Shown here: positions 8,803 through 48,483 of the stretch, piece after piece
How positions within the stretch are numbered: position 1 is the first letter of the stretch
Layout: each line of letters opens with the position of its first letter
DNA from: Escherichia coli
GTDB lineage: Bacteria; Pseudomonadota; Gammaproteobacteria; Enterobacterales; Enterobacteriaceae
DNA: 64,000 bases
Assembly (NCBI RefSeq): GCF_016903815.1
Contig: NZ_CP069973.1
Strand: one strand, 5' to 3'
The notes under the pieces: model-generated
Database searches by the model: none
What the model was told of the DNA's origin: nothing
The model's input: only the letters and a program-made list of their open reading frames with translations
Translations under genes and position numbers: made by a program

Positions 8803-8878
8803 TGGCGTCCCCTAGGGGATTCGAACCCCTGTTACCGCCGTGAAAGGGCGGTGTCCTGGGCCTCTAGACGAAGGGGAC
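8803..8878 (-). tRNA. gltW: tRNA-Glu (UUC) in 16S-23S spacer
   Basis: Reverse complement of GTCCCCTTCGTCTAGAGGCCCAGGACACCGCCCTTTCACGGCGGTAACAGGGGTTCGAATCCCCTAGGGGACGCCA. Confidence 0.95.
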
Positions 8879-24699: not shown

Positions 24700-25038
24700 T
24701 TATTCGCAAAGTGCTGTTGCGGCATCCATTACAGGATCCAAAGGAATTTTTACACCTGCATACTCTGGACTGTCTTTCCAAACAGCATCAATATTGCTCC
24801 CCTCAAGCTTTCCAGACTTTACTCCATCAATAGCAAAACCATTTAATGGGTATCGGTCATCAGTTGCTTTGTCGTATACAAAGGCATACTTACCGTTAAC
24901 GCAAGACACCGTAGCTTTTTCAAAAGTTAACGGCCAATCCTCACCAAACTTAGCGCCATCTAAATCCTGTGTTTTTTCAGCGGCTAAGGAGCCAAAAGAA
25001 AAGGTAAGAAGCATAGCTAAAAAGAGTTTACGTTTCAT
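24700..25038 (-). CDS. small secreted/periplasmic protein of unknown function (moron between cI and int)
   Basis: Start chosen at MKRKLFLAMLLTFSFGSLAA (cleavable signal peptide); two Cys residues; no recognised domain. Confidence 0.55.
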   Translation of the reverse strand: MKRKLFLAMLLTFSFGSLAAEKTQDLDGAKFGEDWPLTFEKATVSCVNGKYAFVYDKATDDRYPLNGFAIDGVKSGKLEGSNIDAVWKDSPEYAGVKIPLDPVMDAATALCE

Positions 25039-31205: not shown

Positions 31206-32147
31206 TTAATTTATTTTTAATGAATGGTAATCTCGTGAGTTGACCGAAGATTTGAGATAACTGCAATCATTAACCGACAGTATTGCCGCTAATAGGCGAC
31301 ATACCAGTGCCTGCATTTGCAGCAATATATCGTTACCATATTGACTGTTGTTAACACTTGAGAAACCAAGCGGTTGACCAAAAAAAATAGCCTCATGAAA
31401 ATTATCATTGCGGATGCCAGAAATGTTTTTTTTACCTGACACCCATGTGGGGATTGATAACCCATAAATTTTGCACATCCACTTTAATCGCTTGTAATGA
31501 TTTGGCGGTTTTTTATCAGGAGCCTTGTCATGCTCAGCCCACGACAAAGCAAAGCACCCATCAAGTGCCATGTAAAGGTACTGGAATTTTTCAAAAGAAA
31601 GGTATTGTGGGTTTTGAGATAAGAATAGTGCATGCACCACTGCCGCAATTCTTTTGGGGGAGTGCGCATCCTTATGTTTGCCATTTATATAATTAAGAGC
31701 CAGTTCTATGACTTCTTTTTCAGAGCATCCAACGAGAATAAAGTCGGTTAACTTAGTGGGCTTGATAGTGGTTGCATCTAAAAAACCAGCGTCAGTGGTT
31801 GTCAATCTTATTCCCTTGAAAAAAGAAAGGCACCACACAATAAAGTTGAGAGTTTCTAACGAGGATGTATTTTTTAATTTTAGTGTGTGCGTTTTGGGCA
31901 TACTGAATACTCGGTGACTATAAGGCATTGTGGATATGCCACCATTAAGGTTATATACATCTTGGTTTCCAGGGTATATCCAACCTTTCACAACGTTTTT
32001 ATCATTATTAACACGCTCCACTTTCTCATTGAGACCAGGTAAAGTAAGCAAAGAAAATTGTTCAGTCTCAATGTTAACTTCTACTGGATAGTATCCAAAC
32101 TCCGACATAATCTCATTGGGTTGCTGTTCGTCAACTTCACCTTGCAT
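31206..32147 (-). CDS. accessory protein (313 aa) with Rx4H motif; candidate HEPN-like abortive-infection protein
   Basis: A+T-rich ORF in the region between replication gene A and cos; motif GIRNDNFHEA (R-x4-H); no other recognised domain. Confidence 0.65.
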   Translation of the reverse strand: MQGEVDEQQPNEIMSEFGYYPVEVNIETEQFSLLTLPGLNEKVERVNNDKNVVKGWIYPGNQDVYNLNGGISTMPYSHRVFSMPKTHTLKLKNTSSLETLNFIVWCLSFFKGIRLTTTDAGFLDATTIKPTKLTDFILVGCSEKEVIELALNYINGKHKDAHSPKRIAAVVHALFLSQNPQYLSFEKFQYLYMALDGCFALSWAEHDKAPDKKPPNHYKRLKWMCKIYGLSIPTWVSGKKNISGIRNDNFHEAIFFGQPLGFSSVNNSQYGNDILLQMQALVCRLLAAILSVNDCSYLKSSVNSRDYHSLKIN

Positions 32148-32622: not shown

Positions 32623-33627
32623 CTAATTTACATGTATGTAGAGTTCACCGTCGCCAGACCAATCGGGACACTCTAAAACAAGCCCAAACTGCTTGAATAT
32701 TTCATCAATGATTATTGTTATCTCCCGAAAATCACCAAAACCTGTAATGTGCTGGTCATTAAACTTCCCATAAAGATTCTGAAAAGCAATGCCTAATTCT
32801 GATAATTGATATCTTATCTTTGAGTTGGATAGTGTAAGGGATAGCTTTGGATCGTATTCTTTAATATTGATGTTTAGAGAATGGACATAACCCATCGCAT
32901 AAGCATAAGAGTTGATGATTAGCCTGATACGTTTTTTTACTTCGAGATACATGTCATTCAGAGAAATATTACCGTACTTATAACCCCAGATGAGTTTTTC
33001 AATCTCGTCAGATACTTCATTTACAACAGTGTCAAGATTCTCTAAAAATAAATCGATAGTTTCTTGAGGGGCAGACCCCGAAGACATGTAATTAGCGAGA
33101 TATTCAGACCATGCACGCGTGGCTGAGATAAGAAGCGCGCTACCATACTCGTTGACTGTAAAGTTTTGGGCTAAGCATGTTAGTAAGTTTTTTTCATGTA
33201 CGTGCACTAATTCATGGTGAATGCGATGGATGACTGCGAGGTATCCTTCTTCTTTCAGTTTTAAGAAGCTACCATCATTGAAAAGCTCAACAAAAAAATC
33301 AATCGATAGCACAAGGGTATATTCTTCACATAGCCCATCATTGCCAATTTTTGTTACTAACTGCCCGACGGCTGCGCCCTGTTTGCTATTGGTAAATGAA
33401 CTAGGGGATTTGTGTTGGTAAGAGGATGTTACCTTTTGAAGAGCTTCACTGAAGTTATAGGAAACAATCACGCATTTTAATTTGGAGATATCAAGATTGA
33501 GATTTTTTGTTAAAGCTCGGATAGCTTCTAGTGTGAAATTACCGATATTATTTGCTTCTTGCTCAGTAGCGAAACCTTCGAGGGTTATTTTAAAATCAGT
33601 TTCCAAAATATTAATCTCCGCGCCCAT
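32623..33627 (-). CDS. accessory protein (334 aa) with HExxH motif; candidate zincin-like metallopeptidase
   Basis: A+T-rich ORF between cos and portal gene Q; motif HRIHHELVHVHE with Glu about 23 residues downstream. Confidence 0.65.
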   Translation of the reverse strand: MGAEINILETDFKITLEGFATEQEANNIGNFTLEAIRALTKNLNLDISKLKCVIVSYNFSEALQKVTSSYQHKSPSSFTNSKQGAAVGQLVTKIGNDGLCEEYTLVLSIDFFVELFNDGSFLKLKEEGYLAVIHRIHHELVHVHEKNLLTCLAQNFTVNEYGSALLISATRAWSEYLANYMSSGSAPQETIDLFLENLDTVVNEVSDEIEKLIWGYKYGNISLNDMYLEVKKRIRLIINSYAYAMGYVHSLNINIKEYDPKLSLTLSNSKIRYQLSELGIAFQNLYGKFNDQHITGFGDFREITIIIDEIFKQFGLVLECPDWSGDGELYIHVN

Positions 33628-41585: not shown

Positions 41586-42015
41586 CGCCGTGCCGCAGCT
41601 CCGAAATAATCCCGATATGCTGCGCCTTTTTGCCGACAACGGCCATACCGATTCCCGACTGGCGAGCTCGCTGTCGTTTGAAAAGGTGTACGTGCTTAAC
41701 GTGGTGGTGACCGACTTCACCGGTGACCTTGATTTGATATTCGTGCCGGTGCAGGCGTGGCTGCGTGAACATCAGCCGGACATTATGACCACCGACGACG
41801 GGCGGGAAAAAGGATTCACCTGGATTATTGATATCAATAACGACGATTCGCTCGATATCAGTATCAGCCTGAGGCTCACCGAGCGCACGCTCGTCAAAGA
41901 GGTCGACGGCGCGCTGCACGTCAGCTATGCCCCTGAGCAGCCACTGCCTGAGCCGGTGACGCGCCCGGTCGAGCTGTACGTTAACGGCGAACTGGTGAGT
42001 AAGTGGGATGAGTGA
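41539..42015 (+). CDS. tail completion protein R
   Basis: 158-aa product, recognised P2 R-like sequence. Confidence 0.85.
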   Translation: MNSMQKHKSLRKALINAVPQLRNNPDMLRLFADNGHTDSRLASSLSFEKVYVLNVVVTDFTGDLDLIFVPVQAWLREHQPDIMTTDDGREKGFTWIIDINNDDSLDISISLRLTERTLVKEVDGALHVSYAPEQPLPEPVTRPVELYVNGELVSKWDE

Positions 42016-42463
42016 ATTAACCGCGCTGCAGGAACGCCTTGCCGGTCTGATTGCCAGCCTGTCACCGGCGGCACGTCGGCAAATGGCGGTTGAGGTTGCG
42101 AAAAAGCTGCGTACCAGTCAGCAACAGCGTATCAAGCGCCAGCAGGCACCCGACGGCACCCCGTATGCGGCACGAAAGCGCCAGCCGGTGCGGAGCAAGA
42201 AAGGTCGGATTAAACGTGAAATGTTCGCCAAACTGCGCACCAGTCGCTTTATGAAAGCCAAAGGCAGCGACAGTGCGGCGGTGGTGGAGTTTACCGGCAA
42301 GGTGCAGCGCATGGCGCGGGTGCATCAGTACGGCCTAAAAGACCGGCCAAACCGCAACAGCCGGGATGTGCAGTACGAGGCGCGACCGTTGCTCGGATAC
42401 TCTTCATCAGACTTACAAAAAGTTGAGAGTTTAATTATGGATGCTTTATGTCAACGCCATTGA
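42008..42463 (+). CDS. tail completion protein S
   Basis: 151-aa product, position and size. Confidence 0.85.
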   Translation: MSELTALQERLAGLIASLSPAARRQMAVEVAKKLRTSQQQRIKRQQAPDGTPYAARKRQPVRSKKGRIKREMFAKLRTSRFMKAKGSDSAAVVEFTGKVQRMARVHQYGLKDRPNRNSRDVQYEARPLLGYSSSDLQKVESLIMDALCQRH

Positions 42464-42519
42464 CTTTGGATTCGCTGAGAATTATTATATAACTCAGCGA
42501 TAGAGGTGGACTGGTGTCT

Positions 42520-42563
42520 AGGTGGGCGTGCCCACTGAGTTGGGTTCGATTCCCTAACCTCGT
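42520..42563 (+). other. tRNA 3'-end-like fragment (T-arm-like GGGTTCGATTCCC), not a complete tRNA
   Basis: T-loop consensus TTCGATT with flanking G/C stem; upstream part cannot be folded into a cloverleaf. Confidence 0.3.
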
Positions 42564-43390
42564 ATTATTCCTCTCGATATTTTTATTGCTGGGTTTTCCT
42601 TTCTTATTTCATTTTTAATTTGCTCATCACAAATTAAATAATCTATGTTTTTTGCTTTAACAAGTTCTTTAACGCTAATGTTAATTGAATTTAATAGATT
42701 TGCATTCCGCATGTTAGCCCCTTCATAAGTAACGGATTTAAAATCACATCCTTTTAATATGCAGCTTTTCATTTCGCTATCTGTAAAATACCCCCCTTCA
42801 AAACTGCAGTTTTCGAAAGTGACATTTTGAAAACATGTATTAAATGCCTTAATATTTCTTAGCTTGCAGTTTTTGAATTTAACACTCTTAACTCTATTGC
42901 CTGTAATATTTAGAGCTTGAATTGTGCAATTATCGAAAGAACAATCTCTAATGTATGATTCGCTCATATTCAAGCCGGTTAAGTCAGCGTCTTTAAAATG
43001 TAAATATTTGATAGTGGACATTTTATCAAGTTCAATCCTTGGAACTTGAATGTTATATATTCCTTTAGCATTTAACTGACGTATGATTTTTATCTTCATA
43101 ATATTCAGTTCTGCAGAAGAATGCTTTGCCAGATTTTCAAGATCTTCAATTAGTTCGTGAATAGCATCTTTATTTTGCCTTTTATTTTCAAAATAGTAAA
43201 GAATCACACCCAAAACAAGAAAGTCTAAAATTGAAGAATTTGCATTAACAAGAAAATTCTCCATGAATTTTGAGTTGTAGTTATCATTATAAACAGACAA
43301 CCCTACTATAAGCCCGGAGTATAAAAAAAAGATACCTATAATATATTTCATATTGCTTATTGTACGCCTAAAAGATGAAGTTCTTTTCAT
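42554..43390 (-). CDS. membrane-anchored pentapeptide-repeat protein (accessory/moron)
   Basis: Very A+T-rich ORF; start chosen at MKRTSSF (AGGT 5 nt upstream); two N-terminal hydrophobic segments, then tandem 5-residue repeats (…DADLTGLNMSESYIRDCSFDNCTIQALNITGN…). Confidence 0.7.
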   Translation of the reverse strand: MKRTSSFRRTISNMKYIIGIFFLYSGLIVGLSVYNDNYNSKFMENFLVNANSSILDFLVLGVILYYFENKRQNKDAIHELIEDLENLAKHSSAELNIMKIKIIRQLNAKGIYNIQVPRIELDKMSTIKYLHFKDADLTGLNMSESYIRDCSFDNCTIQALNITGNRVKSVKFKNCKLRNIKAFNTCFQNVTFENCSFEGGYFTDSEMKSCILKGCDFKSVTYEGANMRNANLLNSINISVKELVKAKNIDYLICDEQIKNEIRKENPAIKISRGIIRG

Positions 43391-43462
43391 TACTACCTGC
43401 CATATGTTTTGTGTGATTTTCGAATGAGTCAACACTCAAATGATACATGAATGCACACCGAA

Positions 43463-43480
43463 TTGTGTAGAAGAGCATAC
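43463..43480 (+). promoter_or_regulatory. candidate Ogr-dependent late promoter element for V (TGT-N12-ACA)
   Basis: TGTGTAGAAGAGCATACA about 50 bp upstream of V start. Confidence 0.45.
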
Positions 43481-43527
43481 AGCTGAATCGTTTTGCTCTT
43501 GGCTTTAACAATCGGCATTCTTTGTTC

Positions 43528-44163
43528 ATGAACACATTAAACACCATTCAAGAGTTAGCACGTGCCATTCGCAACCTCATCCGCTCAGGCGTGGTGACTG
43601 AGGTCGATACTGTGCAGGGGCTGTGCCGCGTACAAAGCGGCGGGATCCAGACTACATGGCTGAACTGGCTGACCACCCGCGCCGGTCGTTCGCGGACGTG
43701 GTGGGCTCCCTCGGTCGGTGAGCAGGTTCTGCTGCTGGCAATCGGTGGCGAGCTTGATACCGCTTTCGTGCTGCCGGGTATTTTCTCCGACGATAACCCC
43801 GCCCCGTCTGCCTCGGCGGATGCGTGGCATGTGGCTTTCCCTGATGGTGCGGTCATTGAGTACGAGCCCGAAACCGGCGCGCTGACGGTCAGCGGCATAA
43901 AAACGGCCGACGTGACGGCATCGGAGTCCATCACCGCAACCGTACCGCTGGTACTGGTGAAAGCCTCGACCAGTATCACCCTCGACACCCCGGAGGTGAT
44001 TTGCACCAATAAGCTAACGACGGCGACGCTTGAGGTGCAGAAAGGCGGCAAGATGAGCGGCAATATCGAACATACCGGCGGGTCACTGTCGTCTAATGGC
44101 AAGGTACTCCACACCCATAAACACCCGGGCGACAGCGGCGGGCAAACGGGGGCACCGTTATGA
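43528..44163 (+). CDS. baseplate spike/assembly protein V
   Basis: 211-aa product from the ATG at MNTLNTIQELARA; recognised P2 V-like sequence. Confidence 0.85.
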   Translation: MNTLNTIQELARAIRNLIRSGVVTEVDTVQGLCRVQSGGIQTTWLNWLTTRAGRSRTWWAPSVGEQVLLLAIGGELDTAFVLPGIFSDDNPAPSASADAWHVAFPDGAVIEYEPETGALTVSGIKTADVTASESITATVPLVLVKASTSITLDTPEVICTNKLTTATLEVQKGGKMSGNIEHTGGSLSSNGKVLHTHKHPGDSGGQTGAPL

Positions 44164-47398: not shown

Positions 47399-47813
47399 GC
47401 CATTCAATATCTGGCGCACTGGAAGTATTGACCTGTTCCAGTGCGTCCAGGTAATCCAGCCACAAATTATATTGCGCCAGTTCGTCACCGTTCAGACGAC
47501 CAATAGCTGCTTTACCGGGCCATTGCTTACTGTTCATGTAGTCGTTTGCCTGGTTGATTTTTTTCTGCTTTTCGGCGTTCGCAGCTTCCACTTCTTCATC
47601 GTGACTTAACGGTGGTAAATCCACCCATACAGGCTGCCCATTTTCATCAGCGCCGCGGGTTTGCCCTTCTGGTGGCATTCCTGAATATGTGAGAAAAACG
47701 TCATCAGAAACACCTACTAAGTCATCTGGCCAGGTGTTGGCTGCTATGTACAGCGACTTCATTTCTTCAGGGTAAAAACCTAGAGTTGATGGAGAAAAAT
47801 AATAAAGAGTCAT
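47370..47813 (-). CDS. alternative tail fibre assembly chaperone (G')
   Basis: 147-aa ORF convergent with G; shares C-terminal motif (…SAPDIEWPTPP vs …TAPEISWPELP). Confidence 0.7.
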   Translation of the reverse strand: MTLYYFSPSTLGFYPEEMKSLYIAANTWPDDLVGVSDDVFLTYSGMPPEGQTRGADENGQPVWVDLPPLSHDEEVEAANAEKQKKINQANDYMNSKQWPGKAAIGRLNGDELAQYNLWLDYLDALEQVNTSSAPDIEWPTPPVTQAS

Positions 47814-47814
47814 A

Positions 47815-48165
47815 TCAGCTTCCTATTGCGAACCAGCGAAAGACATAAACCCCAGATGTTGCATCACAGCGCATCAGGAAATTTGTTTTTGTAAAACTTC
47901 CTGCCGCTCCCGCAATAACCTTTCCACCACCATTGTCGTAAGAGACTACAACCTGATGGCAAATGTTCGGAAAAGAAACCGAGAAGTTAATTGCATTTCC
48001 CGTATTACCTGTCGCACCCACTCCGGCTGTTGCTGATCCCCATTGAATGATTAAGCCGCTAGGTAGTTTTTGATATCCAGCAGCACCCGTTACAGACAAA
48101 AATGAATTTATATCTGGAATCTGGTTTTCCCCTGTTCCGACATCCCGTTTCGCTGCTTCTCCCAA
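47815..48165 (-). CDS. alternative tail fibre C-terminal segment (H'), silent in this orientation
   Basis: Homologous to H C-terminus (GEAAKR.VG.G.NQIPD…YQKLPSGLIIQWG); has no promoter or start of its own. Confidence 0.6.
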   Translation of the reverse strand: MGEAAKRDVGTGENQIPDINSFLSVTGAAGYQKLPSGLIIQWGSATAGVGATGNTGNAINFSVSFPNICHQVVVSYDNGGGKVIAGAAGSFTKTNFLMRCDATSGVYVFRWFAIGS

Positions 48166-48236
48166 ACCAACCTTTTAGAAAATGCAGATATTCCGTTCAG
48201 CTGGCATGTTTCCGACTTTTTACCGGGTTATTTCTC

Positions 48237-48483
48237 ATGTTTATCGGTTATGTACGTGTATCAACAAATGACCAGAACACCGCATTACAGCGAAATGAAC
48301 TGGAGTGCGCAGGATGTGAGCTGATTTTCGAAGATAAAATCAGCGGCAAAACATCAATCAGACTGGCCGGGGCTAAAGAGGTTACTCAGAACCTTGTCAG
48401 AGGGCGATACGCTTGTGGTCTGGAAACTGGATCGCCTCGGGTATCTCAACGCTATACAAACAATTTCCCGCATCCGTTGCTGA
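48237..48483 (+). pseudogene. Hin/Gin/Pin-family serine DNA invertase, frameshifted and 3'-truncated remnant
   Basis: N-terminus MFIGYVRVSTNDQNTALQRNELECAGCELIFEDKISGK matches the invertase catalytic region; homology continues in another frame (…PGLKRLLRTLSEGDTLVVWKLDRLG) after an A4 run at 48349..48352, then is lost before a stop at 48481. Confidence 0.75.

Follow-up and report, generated by a model that had tools for sequence, protein, structure and literature searches.

The interval between the tail genes S and V of a prophage was analysed in a 64,000-nt stretch of Escherichia coli DNA (contig NZ_CP069973.1, assembly GCF_016903815.1), hereafter called the window. The host element is a 186-like prophage with CI, CII, Fil and an Ogr-type regulator, which occupies ~23,600–55,300 of the window and is integrated between yfiB and rplS. 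It is secure that the S-V interval forms a two-gene accessory cassette, consisting of a gene for a membrane pentapeptide-repeat protein and a convergent gene for a tRNA-like RNA with its own promoter. A first-pass annotation of the window had described an A+T-rich insert of about 1 kb between S and V, and this description held: the S stop at 42463 and the V start at 43528 enclose 1,064 nt, compared with 68 nt in an empty-slot E. coli prophage that is otherwise 97% identical. The G+C content was 0.28–0.36 over ~42450–43500 against 0.53–0.64 in the flanks, and that of the pentapeptide gene was 0.30 against ~0.58 outside.

The insert had been taken to start after the S stop. The insert itself was recovered, but its left edge had to be moved, since an alignment of eight slot variants showed that the variable segment begins inside S at ~42399. 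The variants were conserved up to ...CCCGTTGCTCGG and divergent beyond. The final ~20 codons of S (~42399–42463) were A+T-rich and differed with each cargo, and S was 85% identical where R, V and W reached 95–98%. Every cargo comes with its own S 3' codons, and an exchange of cargo therefore also gives an essential tail-completion protein a new C-terminal tail. On the right side, the TGT-N12-ACA box reported upstream of V was present, at a position equivalent to that of an activator-binding site annotated in the P2 record. This pattern occurred 10 times across the window against 14.7 expected; it is thus not enriched, and only its position carries meaning.

The insert contains an intact open reading frame (ORF) of 278 codons on the strand opposite to the late genes. 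RefSeq gives it identical coordinates and the name 'pentapeptide repeat-containing protein' (WP_001530900.1). The start codon is an ATG at 43390 with AGG ~7 nt upstream, and the residues preceding Met14 were kept in aligned homologs. Two hydrophobic segments followed by pentapeptide repeats had been proposed for the product, and the ORF, hydropathy, Pfam and AlphaFold agreed on this order; topology and fold prediction gave a two-helix hairpin with its N-terminus inside, followed by a six-coil cytoplasmic beta-helix. Kyte-Doolittle windows were above the threshold at aa 11–35 and 45–65. Pfam Pentapeptide_4 matched twice (6.5e-9 and 4.2e-6), leaving the first 120 residues unmatched, and by these profiles the protein belongs to the pentapeptide-repeat proteins (PF13599/PF00805; Rfr fold). 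The AlphaFold model, for which 18 homologs were used as input, had a pLDDT of 84.8 and a pTM of 0.70. It exhibited helices at aa 4–34, 42–87 and 93–108, a regular beta-helix at 117–233 and short C-terminal helices. The predicted structure was that of a right-handed quadrilateral beta-helix, with ~24 pentapeptides in the coils and a cytoplasmic part of ~210 aa. By charge counts, the N-terminal tail (aa 1–15) carries a net charge of +5 and the residues following transmembrane helix 2 (TM2) are rich in K and R; the positive-inside rule therefore predicts that both ends of the hairpin, and with them the beta-helix, lie in the cytoplasm.

TM2 was the most conserved segment of the protein. Twelve positions of this region were invariant in 18 homologs (F42, F46, N49, S53, D56, F57, L60, G61, V62, L64, Y65 and Y66), and the spacing 42-46-49-53-56-60-64 places a polar and acidic stripe (N49, S53, D56) along one face of the helix. 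Among 152 distant relatives, position 56 was D in 142 and E in nine, and G61 and F42 were each found in 135.

It had been suggested that such a protein could be a membrane-tethered DNA mimic which inhibits gyrase or other DNA-binding enzymes, as Qnr, MfpA and AlbG do. In MfpA and Qnr, the mimicry of DNA depends on an acidic surface. The beta-helix of the cassette protein, by contrast, was basic by charge counts (net +3, pI 8.6; whole protein pI 9.1), and its ~6 coils compare with 8 or more in the dimer for MfpA and Qnr. The Qnr score was 27.9 bits against a cut-off of 240, the MfpA score was 28.1 against 360, and all Qnr subfamilies stayed at or below 28 bits against cut-offs of 425–500. A Qnr/MfpA-type mimic was rejected on these scores and on charge. 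The membrane anchor also speaks against it, and the mimic reading is considered very unlikely. A basic beta-helix would instead be suited to the binding of nucleic acid.

The tRNA-like RNA element

The RNA element, which the first-pass annotation did not mention and which changes the likely mechanism, came to light through a T-loop-like string, GGTTCGATTCC, directly 3' of the protein gene. When the downstream regions were aligned, a conserved region was found in all 13 loci, from the TCAATAGAG...CTGGTGTC box through to GGGTTCGATTCCCTAACCTCG. It was kept even at protein identities of 33–42% and in four insertion contexts. The minimum free energy fold was a cloverleaf in six lineages, with an acceptor stem of 4–5 bp on which the T arm stacks directly. 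The element is tRNA-like in its cloverleaf, in the T arm on the acceptor, in the T-loop TTCRATT and in the GG of the D-loop. The sequence of the central hairpin was unrelated between lineages, and as its loops are only 2–6 nt long, there is no anticodon.

A pair census after hand segmentation gave 205 Watson-Crick pairs, 18 G.U, 3 A.C and 27 other mismatches, with compensatory changes in the acceptor, D stem and central stem. The preponderance of G.U over A.C (18:3) indicates the + strand, antisense to the protein gene, as the one that folds. In an unfitted MAFFT alignment, 77.8% of the cells paired as against 71.6% in shuffles, and the covariation score was 0.293 as against 0.185; neither value was reached by any of 500 shuffles. 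When the 3' partners were slid by 1–3 columns, pairing dropped to 45–59%. The covariance model, built solely from the 13 elements, gave a single match in the window (42501–42563, 74.6 bits); where the slot was empty or filled with another cargo, it gave no match. Genuine tRNAs of a jumbo-phage array were matched as well, from end to end (tRNA-Met 35.6 bits, E 2e-9), and because these matches run over the full length, the likeness to tRNA is objective. ARAGORN made no call on the element and Rfam gave no match to any family at E<=10; together with the lack of a 7-nt anticodon loop, this led us to reject a true tRNA or a known RNA family.

The element and the protein gene are convergent and share the final 9 nt of the coding sequence, that is, the last two codons and the stop. 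The C-terminus ...R-G-stop, which is kept across the clade, is specified by nucleotides of the acceptor and T stem. In certain homologs the reading frame continues across the T arm, which gives tails such as EVRESNPTQ and GIEPNSVGKPT. Upstream of the element a sigma-70-type promoter was predicted with a consensus score of 10/12, whose -35 box contains the S stop codon TGA (42461–42463). All 13 loci had TTGAC[T/A/G], a 17-nt spacer and nAnnnT, placed 35–42 nt before the acceptor strand, and the spacer sequences were unrelated.

In the complete E. coli genomes and IMG/VR, the element was found only with the pentapeptide gene family, the exceptions in IMG/VR being one true tRNA and two chance matches. 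A general E. coli repeat was rejected on this ground, and a feature common to other S-V cargoes was rejected as the element was not found there. A pattern scan of metagenomes (TGGTGTC-N14-42-GGTTCGATTCCC) returned at least 120 matches, which were unrelated; among the matches listed, none was linked to the protein. The element was single-copy except in an Enterobacter cloacae locus (L015:8039–8140, − strand; also L029), in which its 3' part (GATTCCCTAACCTC) is tandemly triplicated.

We considered whether the element might not be an RNA gene at all. It could be the relic of a tRNA-borne attachment site, or a terminator or 3' stabiliser of the protein gene, in which case the protein would act alone; the position at the cassette edge, the integrase that adjoins one homolog and the silence of ARAGORN and Rfam would fit this. 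Against it, the element is conserved where the synonymous sites of the neighbouring gene are saturated, and the -35/-10 pair stands at a fixed distance despite unrelated spacers. Moreover, compensatory changes were seen in all four helices, with G.U:A.C of 18:3, and the insertion sites differ, none of them being a tRNA gene. We regard this alternative as decidedly unlikely.

A possible parallel was found outside the Enterobacterales, in two Paenibacillus homologs of 26–27% identity: upstream of each, and in the same orientation, lie a promoter, a tRNA gene and a terminator. Both tRNA genes passed the Rfam tRNA threshold (43–48 bits) and were homologous to each other; their loops differed, with UGA in a 7-nt loop and UAU in a 9-nt loop. 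The covariance model of the enterobacterial element did not detect these RNAs. With only two species, which are related, the arrangement may be a coincidence. In one of the two loci (L018), the 3' half of the tRNA is also one arm of a long perfect inverted repeat.

Exchange of cargo at the S-V slot

Sixty E. coli genomes with a 186-like R-S...V-W block were found, and a spread sample of them was inspected for the contents of the slot. It was empty, held the present cassette, or held one of four alternatives: a second pentapeptide allele (L019), a 347-aa ORF in late-strand orientation (L020), a pair of ORFs (L021), or a 287-aa ORF with a partial match to the validated defence gene PD-T4-7 (L022). 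Apart from this PD-T4-7-like gene, the other occupants had no PADLOC, NCBIfam or PHROGs match. Of 5,426 complete E. coli genomes, 13 contained the identical cassette, with the RefSeq annotation given above, and it was also present in a single phage. Among phage records only vB_EcoM-613R3 carried it, the P2 group carried orf30, and the slot was empty in 186, PSP3, many Yersinia and Salmonella phages and several P2-like phages. The statement that V closely follows S in P2-type genomes is therefore correct for 186 and many relatives and incorrect for P2 itself, where orf30 lies in the slot. With its variable occupancy between core genes and its atypical composition, the cassette behaves as accessory 'moron' cargo.

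The comparison of S-V intervals thus showed horizontally exchanged cargo that is missing from most close relatives. This bears on a role in the lytic cycle of the phage itself, such as tail assembly or lysis timing, which the position between lysis/tail-completion and baseplate genes might suggest. The cassette is missing from infectious phages such as 186, PSP3 and many Yersinia phages, it lies on the strand opposite to the late operons, unrelated genes replace it, and orf30 of P2 is annotated as non-essential; a lytic role is accordingly held to be extremely unlikely.

The arrangement had been thought to be without precedent, which does not stand in view of P2. Like the cassette gene, orf30 of P2 (phrog_2407) is an A+T-rich (33–39% G+C) reverse-strand gene of the S-V slot that encodes a predicted membrane protein. 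Unlike the cassette gene, it has no pentapeptide repeats and no tRNA-like element. Homology between the two was rejected, as no sequence similarity was found. Published surveys place the hotspots of P2 in the A-Q, Z/fun and ogr/CI regions, and refer, with no further detail, to others 'within the late genes' and 'downstream of GpL'. A description of the S-V interval as a characterised defence site was not found in the literature, of which our coverage was incomplete.

Homologs occupied the S-V slot of P2-like prophages whose hosts, as assigned by their sources, were Klebsiella (81% identity), Enterobacter cloacae (62%), Yersinia (57%), Salmonella (55%) and E. hormaechei (52%), and that of further contigs (38% and 35%). 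Outside this slot, one homolog (42%) followed ogr in another P2-like element, one (33%) stood between yebY and an integrase, and one (64%), named from Citrobacter, was at the end of a lambdoid prophage beside umuDC and dinI. In every case the cargo was more diverged than its flanks. In L019, for example, R, V and W were 98% identical to those of the window and the cargo only 53%. The ratio of nonsynonymous to synonymous substitution rates (dN/dS) was ~0.05 between the allele of the window and the 81%-identical allele (L002), with synonymous sites saturated, and every allele had 28–33% G+C. It is secure that the cassette is exchangeable prophage cargo under strong purifying selection. The pattern is that of old, functional alleles which recombination in S and V shuffles among phage backbones, a behaviour that has been reported for defence cargo.

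The protein matched phrog_12514, a family of unknown function, over its full length (5.8e-142). A word-indexed search returned 29 relatives, mostly named from Enterobacterales, with 52–99% identity, and a Paenibacillus protein with 27%. A profile of the first 132 residues reached much further and gave 786 clusters (50% identity clustering) at E<=1e-3, nearly all of them proteins of 250–350 aa with C-terminal pentapeptide repeats; 56 of the 56 relatives scanned matched pentapeptide profiles. The family shares the TM2 motif LV[EN]A[HN][GS]xLxDxLxxG and the linker consensus I-x-R-Y-x-E-E-I-D-D-F-R-x-W...R-R-L-N, and no Pfam family covers this module of two transmembrane helices (2TM) and linker. 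Among the homologs of the L006–L010 type (P0005, P0007, P0008 and P0010; 339 aa), some carry ~60 additional residues at the N-terminus, ahead of the first membrane helix. A contig scan with the family alignment gave at least 600 pattern matches, among which, as far as they were listed, one Paenibacillus locus was confirmed; a viral scan with Firmicute-type relatives gave no match. The taxonomic range of the RNA-linked clade is given here from the sampled loci only. A description of a 2TM-pentapeptide prophage protein, of the function of phrog_12514 or of a tRNA-like partner of such a protein was not found in the literature as far as it was covered, which was incompletely.

The width of this family raises the question of a lysogenic-conversion or housekeeping role at the membrane, for instance as an ion channel, a transporter regulator or a stress factor, inherited from the 2TM-pentapeptide proteins at large. 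The 786 clusters with the N-terminal module, mostly from proteins of 250–350 aa, agree with such a role, as does one Paenibacillus homolog that lies among chromosomal genes. The enterobacterial clade, on the other hand, was found almost only in prophage cargo sites, and its alleles turn over far faster than the backbone, so that a housekeeping role appears distinctly improbable.

The features of the cassette and of the loci compared with it are collected in Table 1. Several other parts of the prophage may be mentioned. Two ORFs of 313 and 327 aa (window 31206–32147 and 32623–33606, both −) lie between the replication endonuclease and portal genes, the classical P2 defence hotspot, and are candidate cargo; a DUF2511 gene (24700–25038, −) lies between the integrase and the CI repressor, an interval reported as a cargo site of the P2 family. 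None of these three had a PADLOC or NCBIfam match. At ~47399–48483, a frameshifted recombinase (invertase) gene adjoins a gp53-like fragment and a second, inverted tail-fibre-assembly gene, which together look like what is left of a tail-fibre inversion switch. The sole genuine tRNA gene of the window, tRNA-Glu(UUC) at 8803–8878 (−), lies outside the prophage.

Table 1. Features of the S-V cassette and of compared loci. Positions are those of the window unless a locus (L) is named.
Feature	Position	Strand	Basis or remark
Gene S, tail completion/virion morphogenesis, left conserved anchor	42008–42463	+	ORF list, RefSeq
Sigma-70-type promoter of RNA (predicted)	42460–42488	+	-35 TTGACT 42460–42465, 17-nt spacer, -10 TATTAT 42483–42488
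tRNA-like element, cloverleaf without anticodon loop	42503–42561	+	Alignment, fold, covariance model
Acceptor, 5' strand	42503–42507	+	GAGGT
D-like hairpin	42509–42518	+	GAC-TGGT-GTC; TGG invariant
Central hairpin	42522–42535	+	
T arm	42540–42556	+	GGG-TTCGATT-CCC; loop TTCGATT 42545–42551
Acceptor, 3' strand	42557–42561	+	ACCTC
Membrane-anchored pentapeptide-repeat protein, 278 aa, phrog_12514	42554–43390	−	ORF, Pfam, PHROG, RefSeq, model
C-terminal helical cap and tail, aa 239–278	42557–42676	−	AlphaFold, alignments
Pentapeptide right-handed quadrilateral beta-helix, aa 117–238, predicted cytoplasmic	42677–43042	−	
Helical linker, conserved, predicted cytoplasmic, aa 68–116	43043–43189	−	AlphaFold, family consensus
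Transmembrane helix 2, aa 42–67	43190–43267	−	Hydropathy, invariant columns, AlphaFold
Transmembrane helix 1, aa 16–36	43283–43345	−	Hydropathy, charge counts, AlphaFold
Weak promoter-like site for protein gene	43440–43469	−	TACACA-18-TATCAT; consensus scan only, 9/12
TGT-N12-ACA late-activator (Ogr/B) box upstream of V	43464–43481	+	Pattern match; predicted
Gene V, baseplate assembly/spike, right conserved anchor	43528–44163	+	ORF list, RefSeq
Second pentapeptide allele, 53% identical	L019:1043–1918	−	
347-aa ORF	L020:945–1988	+	Late-strand orientation
Pair of ORFs, 140 and 170 aa	L021:948–1882	−	
287-aa ORF	L022:979–1842	−	Partial match to PD-T4-7 (E 4.8e-9)
Paenibacillus tRNA genes	L018:6798–6872; L039:3937–4012	+	Rfam tRNA threshold passed
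Paenibacillus homolog genes	L018:7001–7855; L039:4173–5012		

Proposed function of the cassette

An exclusion or defence role had been put forward as plausible, and it is the most plausible reading in view of the variable slot, the PD-T4-7-like occupant and the diverged alleles in near-identical backbones. By analogy with known systems, we tentatively favour, at somewhat less than an even chance, the reading that the cassette encodes a membrane effector that would be expressed in the lysogen, regulated by the RNA in a toxin-antitoxin-like manner, and used for phage exclusion or abortive infection. This is favoured because of the cargo site and its turnover, the polar and acidic stripe of TM2, the basic beta-helix, the co-inherited RNA, and the precedents of Hailong and of SLATT effectors with cDNA. 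What the sequence analysis shows is the anatomy of the cassette, its fold, its conservation and exchange as cargo, and the strand and structure of the RNA; expression in the lysogen, toxicity, the target of the RNA and the anti-phage effect are what we infer from these features.

In this proposed system, the hairpin would be the effector, and the N49/S53/D56 stripe suggests that it might oligomerise and, as an assembly, conduct ions or perturb the membrane, with the basic beta-helix serving as a regulatory or sensor domain. The tRNA-like RNA would keep the system inactive, whether through antisense pairing to the mRNA 3' end or as a ligand of the protein, and infection might lift this brake through transcription shut-off, RNA cleavage or sequestration. 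The RNA could thus be either an antisense regulator, as in type I systems, or a protein ligand, as in type III systems and Hailong. The RNA showed no complementarity of at least 10 nt (wobble excluded) to the 5' region of the mRNA, and an antisense mechanism is thereby confined to the 3' overlap.

This last result is one of several that weigh against an RNA-regulated defence effector. No PADLOC-DB 2.0 or NCBIfam defence model matched the protein at a meaningful score. The promoter-like site of the protein gene, which points away from the V promoter and shares sequence with the Ogr/B box, is a weak consensus match only (9/12), and the cloverleaf was derived from the same sequences that were later used to test it. 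Furthermore, within the 786-cluster family, no tRNA-like neighbour was found for seven mainstream members sampled from viral contigs or for one from a short metagenome contig; the fold alone hence does not imply defence, and the link to the RNA is specific to certain clades.

A more specific version of the RNA-regulated effector, which would make the cassette the first of its kind as an RNA-guarded membrane effector, is that the RNA is a tRNA-shaped decoy, which would bind the beta-helix and keep a two-helix pore-former closed; phage activities by which tRNA-like RNAs are destroyed or sequestered, or their synthesis is halted, would release the pore and depolarise the infected cell. The Paenibacillus loci may offer a parallel. 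This version is regarded as rather doubtful. The same doubt attaches to the analogy it implies, in which the RNA would be a transcribed counterpart of the DNA guard of Hailong and the pentapeptide helix a reader of nucleic acid, not a mimic of it.

The effect on phage might also be non-lethal. In superinfection exclusion of the Sim, SieA or Imm kind, the membrane-tethered beta-helix would block genome entry or early steps of infection, and the RNA would tune its expression. The predicted inner-membrane location with a cytoplasmic domain agrees with this, as do the status of prophage cargo opposite to the late-gene strand and the fact that P2 orf30 also encodes a membrane protein. It would, however, account neither for the invariant acidic and polar stripe within TM2 nor for the fact that a structured RNA, equipped with a promoter, shows stricter conservation than the protein. 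We consider pure exclusion fairly unlikely.

If the favoured reading of an RNA-regulated effector is true, the S-V interval would be a fourth cargo and defence site among the P2-family hotspots that are mined for immune systems, the recurrent phage family phrog_12514 would obtain a function, and there would perhaps be a lead on the long-unexplained orf30 slot of P2. It would also make a tRNA-shaped small RNA the conserved partner of a membrane pentapeptide-repeat protein, extend nucleic-acid-gated membrane effectors (Hailong, SLATT with cDNA) to transcribed RNA, and assign to pentapeptide repeats a role that is the reverse of DNA mimicry. As the cassette is self-contained within ~1 kb, direct testing by cloning is possible.

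Comparison with known systems

The cassette could not be assigned to HalA, Qnr/MfpA, tRNA, ToxIN or classical type I systems, because the tests for each of them failed. It nevertheless shares single traits with these and other systems. In type III toxin-antitoxin loci the order is promoter, RNA, terminator and protein gene, and the Paenibacillus homologs have the same order. Like ToxIN and, by analogy, the RNA-regulated AbiF, the cassette joins a protein gene with a gene for a structured small RNA on a mobile element, and the two genes were linked in 13 of 13 loci of the enterobacterial clade. It differs from ToxIN in that it has no tandem RNA repeats, the protein is a membrane protein without an RNase fold, and the RNA of the enterobacterial loci is convergent and not upstream.

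Type I toxin-antitoxin systems with antisense RNAs that overlap at the 3' end include txpA/RatA and bsrG/SR4, whose toxins are shorter than ~60 aa. The likeness lies in a prophage membrane-protein gene with a convergent small RNA over its 3' end, as judged from predicted transcripts; the cassette protein, in contrast, has 278 aa with a large cytoplasmic domain, and its antisense RNA is tRNA-shaped. The CI RNA of P4 and the C4 RNA of P1/P7 are tRNA-like immunity RNAs of phages and satellites that are processed by RNase P. The element resembles them as a small, structured, tRNA-like RNA from temperate phages or satellites of the P2/P4 world, and differs from them in having no Rfam match, another location and another partner gene.

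Qnr, MfpA, AlbG and McbG share the right-handed quadrilateral beta-helix fold with the cassette protein. They are soluble, acidic, dimeric DNA mimics, whereas the cassette protein is membrane-anchored, basic and shorter, and scored below all of their cut-offs. The two-transmembrane-helix N-terminal module is reminiscent of SLATT and SUa-2TM proteins, with profile scores at noise level (PADLOC RTasSLATT, E=0.0027 over aa 6–69; SUa-2TM, E=0.026 in one of 56 relatives), and the TM2 motif of the cassette family belongs to no Pfam family. For SLATT effectors, regulation by cDNA has been proposed.

A parallel by analogy is Hailong, whose mechanism is taken here from a review and a preprint. Its effector HalA is a pentapeptide-repeat membrane protein, which according to the review is activated when short DNAs made by HalB are degraded; by the title of its PDB entry, the structure of HalA was solved in complex with oligo-dA. 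With its membrane hairpin, its repeats and the adjacent small RNA, the cassette would by analogy allow an ion channel gated by a nucleic acid. HalA (NF051894) was also the best NCBIfam match of the protein, at 44.8 bits against a cut-off of 250, with an alignment confined to the repeats (aa 120–228 to profile positions 24–130). The HalA model matches through its N-terminal repeat region, whereas the membrane helices of the cassette protein are N-terminal, so that the domain order is reversed, and an IRK-type channel domain is missing from the cassette. A gene for a HalB-like nucleotidyltransferase was found neither in the insert, which has no other ORF and is bordered by S and V, nor in the homologous loci. 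Membership in HalA was rejected on the score, the repeats-only match, the reversed domain order and the missing HalB. The two systems would also differ in the nucleic acid that they sense, since the candidate ligand of the cassette protein is a transcribed tRNA-like RNA and that of Hailong is enzymatically made single-stranded DNA.

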